DNA of 64,000 nucleotides from Bacteroidota bacterium (GCA_016868575.1 VGGL01000002.1:1703-65702), one strand, 5' to 3'. Numbered from the stretch's first letter, positions 4,489-59,706 are shown. The notes: a model not told the origin generated them from the sequence alone. Numbers and translations: made by a program.

Positions 4489-4722
4489 ATGAAAACTGGT
4501 AAGAATATGAAAAAAAGAATCATCCTTCTGACAGCGATATTGTCGCTTGGCTTCATAAGCCTCTTTGCACAGCCACCCCATCCCAACAATGGCAGTGGTC
4601 CGGGTCCGGGAAACACCCCGGTGGGAGGCGGCGCTCCGATTGACGGAGGGCTCTCCATCCTGCTTGCGCTCGGCCTGGGATATGGGGCAAAGAGAATCTA
4701 TTCTCTGAAGAAAGAGCAATGA
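4489..4722 (+). CDS. 77-aa miniprotein: signal peptide, Gly/Pro-rich linker, PIDGG motif, hydrophobic helix, basic tail (C-terminal sorting-signal-like)
   Basis: MKKRIILLTAILSLGFISLFAQ signal peptide, then PPHPNNGSGPGPGNTPVGGGA, then PIDGG-LSILLALGLGYGA-KRIY. It starts 10 nt after the upstream stop. The start could also be the ATG at 4507. Confidence 0.5.
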   Translation: MKTGKNMKKRIILLTAILSLGFISLFAQPPHPNNGSGPGPGNTPVGGGAPIDGGLSILLALGLGYGAKRIYSLKKEQ

Positions 4723-4778: not shown

Positions 4779-4803
4779 ATGACCTCAAAAGGGTAGTTTC
4801 ATC

Positions 4804-4876
4804 GCGGAGACGCGGAGACGCAGAGAAATGAAGTACTGATTATCACTTCTTTGCGCCTCCGCGTCTTTGCGGTTTT
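4804..4876 (+). terminator. Long imperfect hairpin built from tandem octamers, followed by TTTT (putative intrinsic terminator; member of a repeat family)
   Basis: Left arm is GCGGAGAC GCGGAGAC GCAGAGAA. Right arm is TTCTTTGC GCCTCCGC GTCTTTGC GG. Pairing holds with several G-U wobbles that work only for the + strand RNA. A T-run follows at 4873-4876. Confidence 0.55.
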
Positions 4877-5016: not shown

Positions 5017-5610
5017 ATGAATCCAATTTTCCGTGCATTGATTCCTCCTACTCGCTGGCGCAGGCCTGTGGTTGTGGCTTTGGGTATTATCGCCGGTCTT
5101 AGCCTGTTTCTTTTCTATATTTCAAACGCTGCTTCTTACCTGTCGGATAACCCCAAGACCTGCACCAACTGCCATGTGATGAATCCGCAGTTTGCCACCT
5201 GGCAGCACAGTTCCCACCGGGAGGTGACGAATTGCAACGATTGCCATGTGCCCCATGACAATGTCGTCCGGAAGTACTTCTTCAAAACCCAAGACGGGCT
5301 ACGGCATGCTACTATTTTCACGCTTCGGACAGAGCCTGATGTGATCATGATCAAAGAGATGGGGCAGCGTGTGGTTCATGAGAATTGCATCAGATGTCAC
5401 TTGCAAGTACTGGAAAACCCTGAAGAGGTTGAAGAATCTGGCGAAGAGGAAGAAGCGGAAGGGGAAGTAGAATGGATGCAGCGGAAATGCTGGGAATGTC
5501 ACCGGGAGGCACCACATGGAACGGTCAAGGGACTGGCCTCTGTGCCCCATGCCATGATCACGCCGCAGAAGCCTCCGGTGCCTGAATGGTTAAAGAAATT
5601 AGTAAAATGA
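5017..5610 (+). CDS. nrfH: NrfH, membrane-anchored tetraheme cytochrome c (NapC/NirT family) quinol dehydrogenase
   Basis: N-terminal TM helix and four CxxCH motifs (CTNCH, CNDCH, CIRCH, CWECH). It lies directly upstream of nrfA. Confidence 0.9.
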   Translation: MNPIFRALIPPTRWRRPVVVALGIIAGLSLFLFYISNAASYLSDNPKTCTNCHVMNPQFATWQHSSHREVTNCNDCHVPHDNVVRKYFFKTQDGLRHATIFTLRTEPDVIMIKEMGQRVVHENCIRCHLQVLENPEEVEESGEEEEAEGEVEWMQRKCWECHREAPHGTVKGLASVPHAMITPQKPPVPEWLKKLVK

Positions 5611-5613
5611 GGA

Positions 5614-5686
5614 CCCCACCCCTAGCCCCTCCCCCCTGCCCCCTCCCCACTCAGGGGAGGGGGAGAGGGGGGTGGGGCTGGAGGGG
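5614..5686. repeat. G/C-rich palindromic element, copy A (nrfH-nrfA intercistronic)
   Basis: Left arm CCCCACCCCTAGCCCCTCCCCCCTGCCCCCTCCCC, a 4-nt centre, then GGGGAGGGGGAGAGGGGGGTGGGGCTGGAGGGG. The left arm differs at 1 nt from copy B at 8239. Confidence 0.9.
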
Positions 5687-7867: not shown

Positions 7868-8818
7868 ATGGGCAATTTATCACCTGCGCACTGGCAGGAC
7901 TACGAAATCATTGATTCAGGTGGTCACGAGAAGCTGGAACGTTTCGGCAAATACGTATTACGTCGTCCGGAGCCACAGGCATTATGGCCGAAAGCTTTAA
8001 CGGAAGCCGAGTGGGAAAAACTTTCCGATGCCGCATTTTTTCGTACAAAGGGAAAAGAAGGAAAGCTGAGCGCCTCGGAGAGGGGGGAGTGGAAAACCCG
8101 CAGCAAGATCCCGGAACAATGGAGTATTCTTTACGATCATGATAGCCTGCGGTTGGTTTTCAACCTACGGCTCACCTCGTTTGGTCACGTCGGGATTTTC
8201 CCGGAGCAGGCGGGGAATTGGGAGTGGGTGTGTGCCAGCCCCACCCCCAGCCCCTCCCCCCTGCCCCCTCCCCTGATTGGGGAGGGGGAGAGGGGCCGGG
8301 GGAGAAGGGGAGGGGCTGGAGGGGTTCTCAATCTCTTCGCTTACACCGGTGGGTTTTCGCTTGCTGCACGTGCCGCCGGATATGATGTTGTGCATGTGGA
8401 TGCGGTGCGTAATGTGGTCAACCGGGCAAAAGAAAACATGGTTGCCAGCCACCTGGATCAGATCCACTGGATCGTGGAAGATGCCTTCAAATTCGTTCAA
8501 CGGGAAGTCCGCAGAGGTAAAAAATATACCGGAATTATCCTCGATCCCCCTGCCTATGGCCGGGGGCCGGAAGGTGAAAAATGGCTGCTCAGCGAACAGA
8601 TCGATGAAATGGTTAAGCTTTGCAGCATCCTGTTGGAACCTGAAAAGAGCTTCTTTATCCTGAATTTGTATTCCATGGGCTTTTCTGCAACCATTGCCGA
8701 AAATCTGGTTTTATCTCATTTTTCAGGGATCCGTGAGCTGACCTCAGGCGAACTTTATCTCCCTGACAGGGCTGGTCGGAAGCTCCCGCTTGGGGTATTT
8801 GTTAGGTTTCAGAGATGA
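7868..8818 (+). CDS. Class I SAM-dependent methyltransferase (RlmI-like, PUA-less type) carrying an in-frame palindromic-repeat insertion
   Basis: Motif I VLNLFAYTGGFS and IILDPPAYGRGP (motif IV-like). Residues about 124-152 (SPTPSPSPLPPPLIGEGERGRGRRGGAGG) are encoded by repeat copy B. Confidence 0.8.
   Translation: MGNLSPAHWQDYEIIDSGGHEKLERFGKYVLRRPEPQALWPKALTEAEWEKLSDAAFFRTKGKEGKLSASERGEWKTRSKIPEQWSILYDHDSLRLVFNLRLTSFGHVGIFPEQAGNWEWVCASPTPSPSPLPPPLIGEGERGRGRRGGAGGVLNLFAYTGGFSLAARAAGYDVVHVDAVRNVVNRAKENMVASHLDQIHWIVEDAFKFVQREVRRGKKYTGIILDPPAYGRGPEGEKWLLSEQIDEMVKLCSILLEPEKSFFILNLYSMGFSATIAENLVLSHFSGIRELTSGELYLPDRAGRKLPLGVFVRFQR
8239..8324. repeat. G/C-rich palindromic element, copy B (inside the methyltransferase CDS, reading frame preserved)
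   Basis: CCCCACCCCCAGCCCCTCCCCCCTGCCCCCTCCCC tgatt GGGGAGGGGGAGAGGGGCCGGGGGAGAAGGGGAGGGGCTGGAGGGG. Confidence 0.9.
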
Positions 8819-8981: not shown

Positions 8982-10115
8982 CTAAAAAAACAGATCACGG
9001 GCGACAGCATCGGCAAACAACAGGCCTTCATCAGAAACTTTGATAGAATTGCCTTCCCTTATCAGATACTTCAGACAATTAGTACTTTCACCCATATTTT
9101 TTATCAGATGGTCATAATAGCTGCTTCCGAAAGTATCTGAAACAACAGAAAGATCACACCCCCAACTGGTTCGCAGGGAAGTCATCACATACTCATTGTA
9201 CCGGTCGGTATCCGACAAGATCTCTTTTTCAAAGACTTCCGTCCCATTTGATATCCCCGCAATGTACTCATTTACAGAAGCCTTGTTCCATTGCCGGGAG
9301 ACGCCGTTGTATGAATGGGCAGATGGCCCCAATCCCAGGTAGTTCACAGCTTTCCAGTATGATGTATTGTGTCTGGACTGAAATCCGGGAAGGCAGTAGC
9401 TTGACACTTCATAGTGTTCAAAAGCATAATCGGTGAGCTGACGACGAATAAGCTCAAATTGTTCAGCAGTGTGGCTCTCTTCCGGAGTTTGTTTATTGCC
9501 AGATTGGATCATTCTATCGAGTACAGTGCAAGATTCCACGGTCAACGCATAGGCAGAAATATGCGGGATCTGCAAAGTGAGGAGGATGTCGAGATTTTCT
9601 TCCAGCTTGCTGTTGCTGAGGGTGGGAATTCCAAAGATCAGGTCAACACTCAGGTTATAAATCCCACAGTGCTGTGCTTTCTCAATGGCTTGTACGGCAT
9701 CCTTCCCGCGGTGCATCCTACCCAGATACGACAGGTCTTCATCTTGAAAACTCTGGATTCCGATGCTCACCCGGTTGATGTCGGTGCAGATGGAAGAAGG
9801 TGGCTGAAATTCACCGGAGATCAGGTCGTCCGGATTGGCTTCAAGGGTGATCTCCGCATCCCTGGAAATATGAAAATGGTGATTGATCGATTCGAGAATC
9901 TTGCTGATTTCGCTTTGTTTAAGCAAAGTCGGTGTTCCCCCGCCAAAATAGATCGTATCAATGGGATCATGATCGAGATAGTCTTTCCGGAGAACCATCT
10001 CTTTGTTCAAGGCAACCAGAAAGTCTTCCTTGTGCCGGAGTCCGGCAATTGAATAGAAGTTACAGTAGTGGCATTTCTTCCTGCAGAAAGGGATATGTAT
10101 GTAGATTCCTGCCAT
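8982..10115 (-). CDS. hemW: Radical SAM heme chaperone HemW (coproporphyrinogen III oxidase-like)
   Basis: N-terminal IHIPFCRKKCHYCNF (CxxxCxxC radical SAM motif). 377 aa with HemN-like architecture lacking the HemN N-terminal extension. Confidence 0.85.
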   Translation of the reverse strand: MAGIYIHIPFCRKKCHYCNFYSIAGLRHKEDFLVALNKEMVLRKDYLDHDPIDTIYFGGGTPTLLKQSEISKILESINHHFHISRDAEITLEANPDDLISGEFQPPSSICTDINRVSIGIQSFQDEDLSYLGRMHRGKDAVQAIEKAQHCGIYNLSVDLIFGIPTLSNSKLEENLDILLTLQIPHISAYALTVESCTVLDRMIQSGNKQTPEESHTAEQFELIRRQLTDYAFEHYEVSSYCLPGFQSRHNTSYWKAVNYLGLGPSAHSYNGVSRQWNKASVNEYIAGISNGTEVFEKEILSDTDRYNEYVMTSLRTSWGCDLSVVSDTFGSSYYDHLIKNMGESTNCLKYLIREGNSIKVSDEGLLFADAVARDLFF

Positions 10116-11773: not shown

Positions 11774-12532
11774 ATGTGTGCCGAGACAACCAGGAAGATC
11801 ATGCTGGAGATCTGTGCCAACGGATTACAATCTGCTATCCATGCCAGGGATGGCGGTGCAGATCGCATAGAACTTTGTGAAAACCTTCCGCTCGGAGGCA
11901 CAACGCCTTCGCATGGCACGATCGTCCTGGGCCGCCAGCAACTTGACATTCCCATACATGTGTTGGTCCGCCCAAGGCCGGGAAATTTCTGCTATTCTTG
12001 GGAAGAAAAAGAAGTCCTTCTTGAAGATATCCGGTTTTGCCGGGATCAAGGTGTTTCCGGGGTGGTGGTGGGAGCACTAACGCCCGACAACAAGATAGAT
12101 ACGGCGTTTTGCAGAGATATGATCGGGGTCGCACGCCCCTTATCGGTTACCTTTCACCGGGCATTTGATTTTACCGATCATCCCTTCGAGGCAATGGAGG
12201 CCCTGATCAGCCTGGGTTTTAATAGGATCTTAACTTCCGGACAAAAACCCTCAGCGCTTGAAGGCAAGATTTTGATCAGGGAGCTCCATCAGGCAGCCGC
12301 GGGCCGGATCATCCTCCTGCCGGGCGGCGGAATAAATGAGGATAACATCCTGGAACTAATCCGGTTTACCGGCGTAAACGAGGTGCATCTGTCGGCCGGG
12401 AAGTATATTCCGGGAACCAACTATTCTACCGATACTCCTGTTTCATTGACAATGGCAACATCCGGAGAAGAAGGCATCTTTGTGACGGACACGGAGCGGG
12501 TGAAGCGGGTGGTTGATGTGCTGATGTGCTGA
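11774..12532 (+). CDS. cutC: Copper homeostasis protein CutC
   Basis: MLEICANGLQSAIHARDGGADRIELCENLPLGGTTPS matches the CutC N-terminus. Start is ambiguous: 11774 is the first ATG after a TATTTTCG box at 11734, and the alternative is 11801. The listed ORF start at 11657 is unlikely. Confidence 0.8.
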   Translation: MCAETTRKIMLEICANGLQSAIHARDGGADRIELCENLPLGGTTPSHGTIVLGRQQLDIPIHVLVRPRPGNFCYSWEEKEVLLEDIRFCRDQGVSGVVVGALTPDNKIDTAFCRDMIGVARPLSVTFHRAFDFTDHPFEAMEALISLGFNRILTSGQKPSALEGKILIRELHQAAAGRIILLPGGGINEDNILELIRFTGVNEVHLSAGKYIPGTNYSTDTPVSLTMATSGEEGIFVTDTERVKRVVDVLMC

Positions 12533-17060: not shown

Positions 17061-18164
17061 CTACACAAACTTGTCCCCTTTTTCTACCTTCACATCGTTA
17101 ACTATCTGACGTAATTGCTGTTCGTCAGCTTTTTTACAGATCAGCAGCACATGATCTTGTTCCACCACAATGTAATCTTCCAAACCCTGAATGACAACCA
17201 ATTTATTCTTCGGCATGTTGATGATACATTGCCTGGTGTCATAACAAAGAACATTTTTTCCAACGATCGCATTGCCGTGATCATCCTTTTCGCGGGCCTC
17301 GTATAACGACCCCCAGGTTCCCAGATCAGACCACCCGAAATCTGCCGCAAGAACATAAACGTTCTCTGCTTTTTCCATAATTCCGTAGTCAATCGAGATA
17401 TTCCGGCAGATGGTGTATGTGTCAAGAATAAAGGCTTTTTCTTCCGGCGTATCATATTTCCCTATCCCTGAACGGAAGAGGTCATCCACTTCCGGCAGGA
17501 ACTGGCTAAAAGCCTGCTGTATGGATCGCAATTTCCAAATGAAAATACCGGAATTCCAGAGAAATTCACCGGTAGCCAAAAAGCGTTCTGCCAGCTCCCG
17601 ATCGGGCTTTTCCGTGAAGGTCTTCACTTTTCTGAGTTGTTTCTCCTGCGGGTACACCACACCATCCTGAAACTGGATATATCCATAGCCCGTATCCGGG
17701 CGCGTCGGCTTGATCCCCAGGGTGAGAAGCCAGTCGTGTTCTTCGGCTGCCTGAAGCCCAATGAGGATATCTTTTAAAAACTCATCTTCATGGATGATGA
17801 TATGATCCGACGGAGCAACAACCACGGCAGCTTCAGGATTTTTCCCCTGGATCTTGTAATTGGCATACGCGATACATGGAGCCGTGTTTCGTCGTGCCGG
17901 CTCCAGCAGGATCTGAGATTCCGGCAGTTCAGGGATTTGTTCCTTCACCAGCCCAAAGTATTGTTCATTGGTAACGATGTAGATGTTGGAAAGGGGACAG
18001 ATCCGGAGGAAACGCCGAAAAGTTTTCCGGATCAGGGTCTCACCAGTCCCAAGAATATCGATGAATTGCTTGGGGTGATTGGTTTTGCTGAGGGGCCAGA
18101 ACCGAACGCCAATGCCGCCGGCCATGATCACACAATAGTTGTTTTCGTTCTTTTTGATTTCCAT
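17061..18164 (-). CDS. manC: Mannose-1-phosphate guanylyltransferase
   Basis: N-terminal VIMAGGIGVRFWPLSKTNHPKQF nucleotidyltransferase motif. 367 aa, lacking a PMI/cupin bifunctional extension. Confidence 0.85.
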   Translation of the reverse strand: MEIKKNENNYCVIMAGGIGVRFWPLSKTNHPKQFIDILGTGETLIRKTFRRFLRICPLSNIYIVTNEQYFGLVKEQIPELPESQILLEPARRNTAPCIAYANYKIQGKNPEAAVVVAPSDHIIIHEDEFLKDILIGLQAAEEHDWLLTLGIKPTRPDTGYGYIQFQDGVVYPQEKQLRKVKTFTEKPDRELAERFLATGEFLWNSGIFIWKLRSIQQAFSQFLPEVDDLFRSGIGKYDTPEEKAFILDTYTICRNISIDYGIMEKAENVYVLAADFGWSDLGTWGSLYEAREKDDHGNAIVGKNVLCYDTRQCIINMPKNKLVVIQGLEDYIVVEQDHVLLICKKADEQQLRQIVNDVKVEKGDKFV

Positions 18165-39140: not shown

Positions 39141-39268
39141 TGCTTGATCGCATTGATGATGTGGGAAAAACGAAAATATTTCCGTTTTGTTTCAATGGTC
39201 AAAAATATAGATAATCTTGATATGTGCAACCTGAAATCTTTCTACCTTCGTGGAAAAATCAAACCATC

Positions 39269-39619
39269 ATGAAAAGAATTGCATATTTGATCCTCGGGAT
39301 GCTTTTGGTTTCATCGTCCGTTTTGTGGATTACAGCCTGTGCAGATGAAGATGAAACAACCGGTGGGATCACGATCACAGTCGTTGACCGTTATGGGGTT
39401 CCTATTGTGGGTGAGGCCGTTTACCTGGCAAAGTCCATTGGGGCACTTTCTGATGGCAATTATTACGGCATTTACTATACCGATGCCGAAGGCAAAGTAA
39501 AGATCGTCGAGTTACCTCCCCATTATTACTGGTACGACACAGAGCACTATGACATCTACGGCGCCGCCCAGGTCCATGCCGGGATCATGACGTTTGTAAC
39601 GCTGTACGTAGTAGAGTGA
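39269..39619 (+). CDS. Small lipoprotein with an Ig/carboxypeptidase-regulatory-like beta domain
   Basis: MKRIAYLILGMLLVSSSVLWITAC lipobox, then ITITVVDRYGVPIVGEAVYL. A variant -7 box TACCTTCG lies at 39243. Confidence 0.65.
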   Translation: MKRIAYLILGMLLVSSSVLWITACADEDETTGGITITVVDRYGVPIVGEAVYLAKSIGALSDGNYYGIYYTDAEGKVKIVELPPHYYWYDTEHYDIYGAAQVHAGIMTFVTLYVVE

Positions 39620-39646
39620 ATAGTGAATAGTGAATAGTGAATAGTG
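39615..39646 (+). repeat. (AGTGAAT)x4.5 heptamer array that includes the lipoprotein stop codon
   Basis: Units start at 39615. The TGA stop (39617-39619) lies in unit 1. Stops occur in all three frames, and TTTTT follows. Confidence 0.9.
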
Positions 39647-39696
39647 TTTTTACAACTCTTCTCCTTTCAGGTAATTGTTCTTCTCCCTATTTAGCC

Positions 39697-39751
39697 AAGT
39701 CTGAAACCAAAAGTGCAAAGTGCAATATATTACACTTTGCACTTTAGACTT
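39697..39751. terminator. Long hairpin (arms contain AAGTGCA AAGTGCA heptamers), 8 nt downstream of the tRNA-Arg 3' end
   Basis: AAGTGCAAAGTGCAAT (39711-39726) pairs with ATTACACTTTGCACTT (39729-39744) with one C-A mismatch. There is an outer AAGTCT/AGACTT stem and no U-tract on either strand. Confidence 0.4.
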
Positions 39752-39758
39752 GTCGTCG

Positions 39759-39830
39759 TAGCCCCGCCGGGAATCGAACCTGGATCTGAAGTTTAGGAAA
39801 CGTCTGTTCTATCCGTTGAACTACAGGGCC
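39759..39830 (-). tRNA. tRNA-Arg (anticodon CCU), with two non-Watson-Crick stem pairs
   Basis: GGCCCTG TA GTTC AACGGATA GAAC A GACGT TTCCTAA ACTTC AGAT CCAGG TTCGATT CCCGG CGGGGCT A. The cloverleaf folds, but there is a C-U pair in the anticodon stem, an A-C pair in the T stem, and two G-U pairs in the acceptor stem. Confidence 0.7.
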
Positions 39831-39835
39831 GTTTA

Positions 39836-39887
39836 CCCCCACCCCCAAACCCCTCCCCCAATTGGGGGAGGGGCAGGGGAGGGGGTG
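39836..39887. repeat. G/C-rich palindromic element, copy C (short form) between the promoter box and tRNA-Arg
   Basis: CCCCCACCCCCAAACCCCTCCCCCAA TTGGGGGAGGGGCAGGGGAGGGGGTG. The inner 12 bp are perfectly palindromic. Confidence 0.85.
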
Positions 39888-57477: not shown

Positions 57478-59166
57478 TTAATTCTTCACCTTCCCATACG
57501 AATCCTTCAAAGACACCACCCGGTTGAAAACCGGCTTTTCTGCAGTGGTGTCGGGGTCAACACTGAAATACCCCAGCCGTTCAAACTGGAATTTATCCGG
57601 CGGTTTCACCTCGTCCATGGCAGGATCGGCACACCCGGTGATCACTTTCAGCGAATCAGGGTTCAGGTTTGATTTGAAGTCTTTGCCTTCTTCCACTTCA
57701 TCCGGATTTTCCTTGATGAATAACCGGTCAAACAGACGCACTTCCACCGGGATACAATGACGGGCAGATATCCAGTGCAAGGTCGATTTGACCTTCCGGT
57801 TGCTTCCCGACATGCCGCTCCGTGATTCGGGATCATAGGTACAATGCACCTCCGTAACCTCTGCGGTACCCGTATCACGTATCACCTTATCACACTTGAT
57901 GATATAGGCATATTTCAGTCGCACCTCATTGCCGGGGAAAAGCCTGAAAAACTGCTTGGGCGGATCTTCCATAAAATCCTCCCGCTCAATGAACAACTCC
58001 CGGGAAAATGGTACTTTCCGGGTGCCGGAAGAAGGATCTTCAGGATTGACCACGGCTTCCATCTCTTCGGTTTTTCCTTCCGGGTAATTGGTGATGACGA
58101 CCTTCAGCGGATTCAACGCCACCATGGTTCGGGGGGCCCGTTTGTTCAGGTCTTCCCGGATGCTGAATTCAAGCAGGGCAACATCGATGACGTTATCCCG
58201 TTTGGCAACGCCCACTTTTTCGGCAAAGAAGCGGATCGCTTCAGGCGTATAGCCCCTGCGGCGAAGTCCGGAGAGGGTAGGCAGACGGGGATCGTCCCAG
58301 CCGCTTACATACTTTCCTTCCACCAATTCCAGAAGTTTTCTTTTGCTCATGATGGTGTAGCTCAGGTTGAGCCTGGCAAATTCGATCTGCTGTGGGTGGT
58401 AGATATCGATGGTATCGAGAAACCAGTTATAGAGTGGCCGGTGGACCTCAAATTCAAGGGTACAGATCGAATGGGTGATCCGTTCGATCGAATCCGACTG
58501 GCCGTGGGCATAGTCATACATCGGATAGATGCACCAATTGTCGCCGGTACGGTGGTGATGCTCATGGATGATACGGTACAAAATAGGATCCCGCATATGC
58601 ATGTTGGGTGAAGCCATGTCGATCTTGGCCCGGAGAACCTTCGATCCGTCAGGGAACTCGCCGGCTTTCATTCTCCGGAAAAGATCCAGGTTCTCTTCCA
58701 CCGGACGGTTGCGGTAAGGGCTTTCCTTTCCCGGGCGGGTGGGTGTTCCCCGTTGTTCGCTGATCTCTTCAGCGGCAAGGTCGCAAACATAGGCTTTTCC
58801 GATCATGATCAGCTTCTCGGCCCAGTCGTAGAGTTGCTGGAAATAGTCAGAAGCGTAATATTCCCGGCCAGCCCAGTCGAAACCAAGCCAGTGGATATCT
58901 TCCTTAATGGAATCGACATATTCGATATCCTCGGTAGAGGGATTGGTATCATCAAATCGGAGGTTGCAGAGGCCGTTGTATTTCTTTGCCAGTCCGAAGT
59001 TCAGGCAGATCGATTTGGCGTGGCCGATGTGGAGGTACCCGTTGGGTTCCGGCGGGAAACGGGTGTGTACCCGGCCGTCGTTCTTGCCGGTCTTAAGGTG
59101 TTCTTCAATGATCTCTTCGATAAAGTTCAGGGAAGCCGGTTTATCTGTTTCATTCATATCCTGCAT
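57478..59166 (-). CDS. glnS: Glutamine--tRNA ligase
   Basis: [14 protein letters not shown] (HIGH) and IMSKR motifs. The start at 59166 is supported by a -7 box at 59181. The listed 59256 start is unlikely. Confidence 0.93.
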
Positions 59167-59180
59167 CGCATTTTGACCGG

Positions 59181-59188
59181 CAAAGGTA
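59181..59188 (-). promoter_or_regulatory. -7 promoter box TACCTTTG for glnS
   Basis: The reverse complement of caaaggta matches exactly, 15 nt upstream of the ATG at 59166. Confidence 0.45.
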
Positions 59189-59232
59189 CGATCAATTTGA
59201 AAATGATGAGCCCCTTCGGAAATGCCTTTAAT

Positions 59233-59324
59233 GCCGCCAAGACACGAAATCACCAAGTTGCACTAATAACAATAACCTGATTAACAGTATTTTGTGCTCC
59301 TTTGTGTTTTCGTGTCTTTGTGGC
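59233..59324 (+). repeat. Octamer-word inverted repeat: GCCGCCAAGACACGAAA (59233-59249) with TTTCGTGTCTTTGTGGC (59308-59324)
   Basis: 15 of 17 positions are complementary plus one G-U wobble, with a 58-nt loop. The right-hand side continues with TTTGTGCTCCTTTGTG words. Confidence 0.65.
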
Positions 59325-59499
59325 AGAAACCAAAGATTGCATAATCGGCGTATGCTTCCTGATAAGAATTTCCATCTTCTCAGCCTGGGGATCTCTACAG
59401 ATGATCAGGAAGAATACCCGAAAAATCGATAAAAGGACTCTGAAATCAGATAGGGAGGTGTTGATAATTTCAGAGGTTTCATGTAACCAAACCTGAAAG

Positions 59500-59706
59500 C
59501 TACTCCAATGCGGATATATCAATGCCGGCATGCTTCAGAATAGCATAGAATGTTACCTTGGGAAGGTCTTTTTTCCCATGAACAGGAACTGTGACCATTT
59601 TATTCTTTTGGGGATTGTAAAATAAGAAATGGCTTCCATTAGAACGTCGAAAGCCATAACCATTTTTTTCAAGAATTTTTATCAAATATTTGGCAGAATA
59701 GTTCAA
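59500..59706 (-). CDS. hicA: HicA family mRNA interferase toxin
   Basis: 68 aa. The NGYGFRRSNGSHFLFYNP...VTVPVHGKKDLPKVTFYAILKHAG pattern is typical of HicA. Confidence 0.85.
   Translation of the reverse strand: MNYSAKYLIKILEKNGYGFRRSNGSHFLFYNPQKNKMVTVPVHGKKDLPKVTFYAILKHAGIDISALE

Follow-up and report, generated by a model that had tools for sequence, protein, structure and literature searches.

A 64,000-nucleotide (nt) stretch of DNA from a Bacteroidota bacterium (GCA_016868575.1 VGGL01000002.1:1703-65702), referred to here as the window, contains an 86-nt palindrome of C- and G-tracts (element B, 8239-8324, plus strand) within the coding sequence of a class I S-adenosylmethionine (SAM)-dependent methyltransferase (7868-8818, plus strand; 316 aa). 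The explanation that we consider likely is that a dispersed palindromic repeat, similar in its behaviour to repetitive extragenic palindromes (REPs) and the Rickettsia palindromic elements (RPEs), was copied into a permissive interdomain linker of the enzyme and is translated there as a disordered loop, corresponding to residues 124-152 (SPTPSPSPLPPPLIGEGERGRGRRGGAGG).

In the mechanism that we propose, a non-coding palindrome with a C-tract arm and a G-tract arm would act like a REP or an RPE, that is, as selfish or copy-paste DNA. It would be copied into the short helix-to-β1 linker between the N-terminal domain and the Rossmann domain that binds SAM, overwriting most of this linker. A copy whose net length keeps the frame would simply be translated as a disordered loop, Pro-rich and then Gly/Arg-rich, because five of the six frames of element B contain no stop codon and, whichever frame is read, the C-arm encodes Pro/Ser/Thr/Leu and the G-arm Gly/Arg/Glu. 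Such a copy would survive because the linker is one of two length-tolerant places in the protein family, and this tolerance would also explain the presence of unrelated repeats at the same spot in other lineages.

Element B and its sister copies

Element B is composed of a 35-nt C-arm (8239-8273), the loop TGATT (8274-8278), and a 46-nt G-arm (8279-8324). The original prediction, made from the sequence alone, described it as a near copy of an element between nrfH and nrfA, and the comparison bears this out. The sister copy, element A (5614-5686, plus strand), fills the nrfH-nrfA spacer, starting 3 nt past the nrfH stop codon (5608-5610) and ending 14 nt ahead of the nrfA start (5701), and consists of a C-arm (5614-5648), the loop ACTCA (5649-5653), and a G-arm (5654-5686). 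In the left arms, the two elements agree at 34 of 35 positions. The full alignment has 66 matches over 73 positions, with five of the seven mismatches in the loop; without the loop, 66 of 68 aligned positions match, and a single 13-nt indel is left, which is an extra block in the G-arm of B that appears to be a duplicated GGGGGAGAGGGG unit. A third member of the family, element C (39836-39887), is shorter and diverged, and lies 5 nt upstream of the 5′ end of the tRNA-Arg(CCT) gene (39758-39830, minus strand).

The 23-mer CCCCTCCCCCCTGCCCCCTCCCC common to A and B occurs twice in the window, against zero occurrences expected from shuffles, and GGGGAGGGG occurs 10 times, against 1.3 expected, with all 10 occurrences lying within A, B, and C. 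These counts demonstrate a dispersed palindromic repeat family with three copies in the window, none of which is expected by chance. Two of the three copies are non-coding, and the earlier description of the palindrome as a translated repeat therefore holds for B, but its description as not intergenic does not hold for the family. In any frame, the C-arm of B encodes a segment rich in Pro, Ser, Thr, and Leu and the G-arm a segment rich in Gly, Arg, and Glu, which agrees with the earlier remark that a Pro-rich and a Gly/Arg-rich half mirror the two arms.

Each of the three copies is predicted to fold as one long RNA hairpin, with free energies of −73.4 (B), −67.6 (A), and −51.4 kcal/mol (C), although shuffles of the same base composition also fold strongly (mean −61.6 kcal/mol). 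The G-arm of B contains seven G-tracts of at least 4 nt. Readings of the element as a terminator, a promoter, or a known RNA family were rejected on the basis of a terminator scan and Rfam 15. The scan for intrinsic terminators calls nothing over B and touches A only with a 6-bp sub-stem call on the minus strand; its total number of calls equals the shuffled expectation, and the tails are TTCTCAAT for B and TAAAAAAA for A. In Rfam 15, no family reaches its gathering score, and the only matches are to animal microRNA precursors, at 22-35 bits against cut-offs of 55-107.

The loop of B is the reverse complement of the loop of A with one mismatch, and the arms of both elements have the same orientation, a combination with a chance probability of about 0.016. 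The difference between the two loops looks like the product of a recombinational flip within the palindrome. The idea that A, B, and C share one orientation relative to transcription was rejected: it was withdrawn because a C-arm/G-arm palindrome reads C-rich and then G-rich on both strands, and the alignment scores leave the orientation of C ambiguous. Stop-codon repair in B was likewise discarded, as the TAG of A that is lost in B is out of frame in B; the single difference between the left arms is therefore synonymous. Element C lies immediately downstream of a minus-strand TACCTTTG box that fits the Bacteroidetes −7 consensus, TAnnTTTG. Given this box, the hairpin of C would lie in the pre-tRNA leader.

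The host methyltransferase and the authenticity of the locus

The host protein is identical to NCBI MBM3403347.1, from a Bacteroidota metagenome-assembled genome (MAG), and is a 2IGT/RlmI-like enzyme (PF10672). It scores 45 bits against the PF10672 gathering cut-off of 27 in Pfam and matches PDB 2IGT (2IGT_A) over its full length (E 4.7e-63, profile positions 6-290), and these matches either flank the insert or extend across it. The protein reaches no NCBIfam equivalog cut-off, and the substrate is thus not assigned from the family. The open reading frame (ORF) is continuous through element B, reading ...NWEWVCA-SPTPSPSPLPPPLIGEGERGRGRRGGAGG-VLNLFAYTGG, which establishes the in-frame position claimed in the original prediction. 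The host gene is otherwise intact, as had also been stated: its protein has every invariant column of a 29-sequence alignment, including motif I (VLNLFAYTGG) and DPPAYG. Nearly all homologues have an R/K ahead of VLNLF that the host protein lacks.

The AlphaFold model of the host protein, with a predicted local distance difference test score (pLDDT) of 85 and a predicted template modelling score (pTM) of 0.84, shows a helix at residues 112-123, a coil at 124-152 with pLDDT below 50 at 134-148, and strand β1 of the SAM-binding fold at 153-156. The insert is thus predicted to sit in the helix-to-β1 linker in a manner compatible with the fold, and its placement at the junction between the N-terminal domain and SAM motif I was correctly named at the outset. 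The segment encoding motif I and β1 (VLNLFAYTGGFS; 8324-8359, plus strand) begins right after the element.

As palindromes rich in G and C homopolymers are hard for short-read sequencing, a chimeric join via a low-complexity repeat, arising in assembly or binning, has to be considered. However, the whole gene, including all 86 nt of B, was recovered with no mismatches from a metagenome contig of the Joint Genome Institute (JGI) and, for different Sequence Read Archive (SRA) runs, from three Logan assemblies, and each of these four contigs crosses both junctions; the JGI contig carries element A too. Since four independent assemblies besides the window are identical, the chance that the locus is an artefact is negligible.

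The linker across homologues

A search of 5.8 billion proteins, in which 8000 homologues were scored, showed that even the nearest homologues are only 59-66% identical to the host protein outside the linker. The stretch from NW to VLNLF usually comprises 10-18 aa in homologues, and the equivalent linker in PDB 2IGT has 15 aa. In the host protein it has 34 aa, of which only EWVCA (8222-8238, plus strand), at the C-terminal end of helix 112-123, looks native, so that five residues are kept of a native linker of 10-18. Set against homologues, the protein gains about 16-24 aa net at this site, fewer than 29 because most of the native linker is missing. The earlier figure of about 29 added residues is therefore correct as a number of codons (29 codons, 87 nt, 8237-8323, as 86 is not a multiple of three) but not as a net gain. 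Element B replaces most of the native linker and is no simple extension by 29 residues, and a precise empty site in orthologues, as originally envisaged, was not found. Positional orthologues with linkers of 10-18 aa do exist, none of them above 66% identity.

The length variation in the family is concentrated at this site. Among 105 homologues, seven of the nine inter-anchor segments are constant in length and one varies slightly (37-52 residues), whereas the linker from FPEQ to LNLF is the most variable segment, ranging from 19 to 79 residues with 31 distinct lengths. The family thus tolerates indels essentially only in the helix-to-β1 linker, and this tolerance suffices to explain the recurrent occupancy of the linker by repeats. 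Linkers longer than 19 aa are present in 46 of the 120 closest homologues, and many of them read as translated repeats, including Pro-then-Gly palindromes and units such as SQKPEAR, IQHPASS, TENREPR, and HHLTTSP; a common 18-aa linker (..SRVTRHASR) is encoded by (CGCGTCA)n. At the DNA level, a C-arm/G-arm palindrome, different in each case, is found at the linker in four of the homologous loci (L005, L178, L179, and L184), a palindrome with heptamer-periodic arms in L182, and heptamer tandem repeats in L181. The linker is occupied by G/C palindromes in at least five separate clades, with short-linker relatives in between, and one clade with 77-87% identity mixes filled sites, apparent G-arm remnants, and short sites. 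Orthologues do have Pro/Gly-rich linkers; each one examined at the DNA level is a different palindrome with a length of its own and not a homologous linker of the same length. The site is thus either one where such repeats land again and again or one where they reside for long periods.

A DNA target motif in the G-rich NWEWV codons was considered and rejected, as other insert-bearing clades have AT-rich codons there; it was dropped because the permissiveness of the loop is a simpler explanation. In two homologues, P0005 and P0007, repeat-like inserts (..HQLINSSPHQL.. and ..HHLSTSPPHHL..) are also present in the only other length-variable loop of the methyltransferase, located at alignment columns ~75-95, which correspond to residues ~60-70 of the window protein (pLDDT below 50 at 63-69).

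Orthologous loci and other genomes

Several of the homologues are positional orthologues with the partial or full gene order nrfH-nrfA-cupin-methyltransferase-radical SAM-histidine kinase. Element A is not present in the nrfH-nrfA spacers of three orthologous loci, where other repeats are found: (GAGTGAA)n in L177 (1568-1619), and a palindrome with heptamer-periodic arms in L179 (8022-8135) and in L184 (8052-8133). This spacer, too, is a recurrent home for repeats, and element A is not ancestral in it.

The behaviour seen in the window is also demonstrated in a sister genome. L179 (GCA_964455285.1) has a 38-nt element in its methyltransferase linker and, at 97% identity, a second copy in frame in the neighbouring HemW-like gene. 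These copies are read in different frames, giving SPPDPLSPGRGG and PHPPTPSPRGEGE, which argues for an element at the DNA level and not for a selected peptide. The loop before EITLE(A/I)NP in the HemW-like radical SAM gene comprises 27 aa in each of five orthologues, among them the window gene (8982-10115). In L179, this loop is replaced by repeat DNA (11848-11885, the same 38-nt G/C palindrome as in its methyltransferase linker), and in L184 (~12000-12130) it holds a longer patch made of a heptamer-like repeat and a different G/C palindrome. A further orthologous locus, L183 (the genome of P0057), has a gene for a 166-aa Y1_Tnp protein of the IS200/RAYT type (RAYT, REP-associated tyrosine transposase; 9375-9875, minus strand) directly upstream of the methyltransferase orthologue. 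The 3′ flank of this gene (9339-9391) is ~78% complementary to two tandem REP-like units 8 kb off (17790-17891); gene and repeats are probably a RAYT/REP system, unrelated in sequence to the G/C element.

Beyond these loci, the exact 23-mer of the C-arm core is found in 47 genome stretches (L126-L172) from at least seven phyla, including Chloroflexota, Armatimonadota, Cyanobacteria, Planctomycetota, and Bacteroidota, usually with a C-tract tail and a short hairpin; a 25-mer was found in only two metagenome contigs, which are unrelated. At least 6 of 53 occurrences of the 23-mer are in frame in genes with Pfam support, the hosts being alpha-2-macroglobulin, a GlcN6P-isomerase/PIG-L linker, hydantoinase B, FemAB, an amine oxidase, and DUF218. 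These in-frame copies, from Armatimonadota, Chloroflexota, Planctomycetota, and others, demonstrate the same behaviour in other phyla. The breadth across phyla could reflect either common descent or a convergence of low-complexity hairpins. In the Armatimonadota genome MAG63, the 23-mer forms both ends of ~130-nt palindromes that resemble REP doublets. The core hairpin also has at least 120 matches in viral contigs; these were set aside, as most lie in contigs of high GC content, in which an ORF that runs across the element is not reliable evidence. A protein database search with the five open-frame translations of B gave no match, the host protein included, presumably owing to the composition filter of HMMER.

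Origin of the inserted segment

The original prediction offered two possibilities for the insert, a recent mobile insertion and an exapted disordered linker. The near-identity of B to the copy 2.6 kb away, together with the lack of that copy in the orthologous spacers, favours recent copying. We infer the recency of the copy, its neutrality or tolerance, its translation, and the way in which it was copied.

Several observations weigh against recent copying by a REP- or RPE-like repeat. None of the elements A, B, and C has a GTAG or CGTC tag at or beside its ends, and none is bordered by a target-site duplication (the flanks are GAGGA and TAAAA for A, GCCAG and TTCTC for B, and GTTTA and CAAAG for C). 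No mobilising enzyme or Y1_Tnp is present among the 20 ORFs (111-436 aa) tested in the 64-kb window, and the family counts only three copies, a number that covers this window alone. That residues 124-152 are translated is an assumption. Public data contain no empty-site allele or close orthologue, the nearest homologues being as distant as noted above, and therefore the insertion event itself is not observed. In the best-matching clade, P0002, P0005, and P0007 carry G/C palindromes at nearly the same codon position, and P0004 and P0006 resemble G-arm remnants, as an old resident element might leave. Moreover, the methyltransferase elements of L179 and L184 (10384-10421 in both) are identical at 36 of 38 positions, in genes whose overall identity is 84%, with 67% at third codon positions, and in which the linker codons beside the element are the most diverged part. 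This conservation hints at constraint or concerted evolution and not at neutral junk, and the identity may stem from either of these or from parallel insertion.

These points bear most directly on the possibility that the palindrome entered the gene before its split from the P0002/P0005/P0007 clade and has persisted as an exapted, long-lived disordered linker, kept palindromic and similar to the other copies by gene conversion or hairpin-templated correction; in that case, the nrfH-nrfA copy may derive from the methyltransferase copy. The insertion nucleotide is the same in P0002 and P0005, as are the first 10 nt of their elements, the window element begins within two codons of this insertion position, and P0004 and P0006 resemble partial deletions in which the G-arm survives. 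The L179/L184 conservation and the close spacing of sister copies in both the window and L179 (only 1.4-2.6 kb apart) are in line with such residence. Against it, the sequence, length, and loop of the element differ among clades, the window copy is nearly identical to its local intergenic copy, and the window protein is a lone branch outside the P0002/P0005/P0007 clade. In addition, the filled P0007 and the short P0006 are 87% identical as proteins, indicating that turnover is fast, and entirely different repeat classes occupy the same site elsewhere. Long residence is therefore unlikely in our judgement, though it deserves to be taken seriously. Another reading is that a hairpin class spanning several phyla overwrites permissive loops by hairpin-templated or ectopic copying and is then preserved as DNA through selection or concerted evolution; the mRNA hairpin between the domain-coding halves may then be functional itself. 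We hold this to be rather doubtful. Compatible with it are the replacement of native residues in both the methyltransferase and the HemW-like protein, the agreement of the L179 and L184 elements amid scrambled flanking linker codons, the loop flip between A and B, and the in-frame copies in Armatimonadota, Chloroflexota, Planctomycetota, and others.

A selected cis-acting structure, either a very stable hairpin in mRNA or DNA or a G-quadruplex formed by the G-arm, might instead be kept between the domain-coding halves, with possible roles in ribosome pausing for co-translational folding, in mRNA stability, or as a recombination or replication signal. The stability of the hairpin and the G-tracts of B, the perfect inner stems found in every orthologue despite differing sequences, and the better conservation of the element than of the flanking linker codons between L179 and L184 would be expected of such a structure. 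However, most homologues, including 2IGT, have a short linker free of palindromes, non-palindromic heptamer tandem repeats occupy the site in other lineages, and members of the same family lie in non-coding spacers and beside a tRNA gene. Together with the lack of an Rfam family at threshold and of a terminator-like signal over B, and with the strong folding of shuffled sequences of this composition, these facts make selection for a cis-acting structure quite improbable. The extreme stability of the hairpin also raises the question of whether the segment is absent from the mature protein, being cut from the mRNA or bypassed by the ribosome like the byp elements (GC clusters) of Magnusiomyces mitochondria, as GC-rich palindromes in coding regions are bypassed in translation in one yeast mitochondrion (PMC8811140). 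Here, the reading frame stays open and is in register on either side of the element, so that no bypass is needed; homologous inserts elsewhere are also in frame, one element is used in two frames, and no signal of an intron or of a known RNA family was found. Removal or bypass of the segment is thus highly improbable. Copying of a dispersed palindrome into the permissive linker, followed by its translation, is the explanation that we prefer over all of these.

Implications

If the insert arose in this way, non-coding hairpin repeats would be routinely absorbed into proteins outside Rickettsia and organelles, wherever a loop tolerates them, and one interdomain linker could be refilled repeatedly by whichever repeat family the genome has. 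For annotation, this means that translated repeat DNA, and not a functional motif, may underlie the Pro/Gly-rich or 7-aa-periodic "linkers" of Bacteroidota proteins, and for protein evolution, that translated repeats are a ready supply of disordered linkers. With regard to mobile DNA, a class of G/C-tract hairpins is present in many phyla without a known mobilising enzyme. Of particular interest are the way in which the element replaces native sequence, its conservation as DNA, and its reach across phyla. Should the reading with a multi-phylum class of overwriting hairpins prove true, this class would be an undescribed general driver of the turnover of linkers and disordered loops in bacterial proteins.

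Other repeats in the window

The window contains further repeats that differ from the G/C-tract family. A second type of palindrome, with 8-nt periodic arms made of CGCGGAGA repeats, is located at 4803-4871 between a small PID_CTERM ORF (4489-4722) and nrfH, and this palindrome has a terminator-like stem and a T-run (4859-4872). An (AGTGAAT)n heptamer tandem repeat and a AAAGTGCAAAGTGCAATA palindrome are found at 39620-39650 and 39706-39756, just downstream of the ORF 39224-39619; Bacteroidetes are known to carry such heptamer repeats (PMC4679880). In addition, an inverted repeat with 35-nt arms, 80% complementary and 24 nt apart, is located at 59232-59325, at the junction of two ORFs on the minus strand (57478-59256 and 59250-59531).

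Comparison with known systems

In-frame palindromic repeats inside proteins are established for the RPEs of Rickettsia (PMC10969869, PMC3733652). The present insert is of a kind already known from Rickettsia and other bacteria, of which the G/C-tract case is a new example, and our conclusion leaves the known view of this kind of process unchanged. Full-text literature searches returned no description of this G/C-tract family. Both the RPEs and this element are dispersed palindromes found between genes and in frame in unrelated housekeeping genes, with inserts compatible with the fold and with intact host proteins. They differ in that RPEs are ~150 bp long, belong to a CGTC-tagged class, and encode a conserved peptide, whereas this element has 73-86 nt of C- and G-tracts, is untagged, and is read in different frames. 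The two have no sequence relationship, and the host here is a free-living member of the Bacteroidota and not a reduced intracellular genome.

Intragenic in-frame REPs have also been documented, and different REPs are inserted at about the same site of recB in two Xanthomonas species (PMC3733652; PMC10969869), which is a precedent for the recurrent linker site described here (PMC3733652). Like this element, GTAG and CGTC REPs are short GC-rich stem-loops with many copies, mostly downstream of or between ORFs and in some cases inside them (PMC3733652). Unlike REPs, which are units of 20-40 bp or doublets of these, the element is a single hairpin of 73-86 nt with no end tag, and as regards the RAYT/REPIN system, no RAYT was seen in the 64-kb window. 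Bacterial MITEs (miniature transposable elements with inverted repeats), such as ERIC, QMITE1 of Coxiella, and the MITEs of Anabaena, are likewise small non-autonomous inverted repeats that can lie within genes, form in-frame fusions, and add peptide segments (PMC10969869, PMC5896051). In contrast to MITEs, no target-site duplication or, within the window, parent insertion sequence was identified for this element, and the whole of it is a hairpin instead of a core between terminal inverted repeats.

The GC clusters of yeast mitochondria (var1, byp) share with this element a GC-rich palindromic structure, a mostly intergenic and occasionally in-frame location, and a concentration of change in the loop (PMC8811140). 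GC-rich palindromes of Neurospora mitochondria flank tRNA genes (cited in PMC8811140), as element C does here. GC clusters, however, are organellar, have AG/TAG terminal repeats that are read as target duplications, and are bypassed in one lineage (PMC8811140), none of which is seen or needed here. Finally, the tandem repeats of Borgs (PMC9879509) resemble this element in that repeat DNA is translated into disordered protein segments, and heptamer repeats of the type noted in Bacteroidetes and Cyanobacteria (PMC4679880) fill the same methyltransferase linker in other lineages. The Borg and heptamer repeats are direct tandem repeats that arise in place, whereas this element forms a palindrome, and other loci hold near-identical copies of it.

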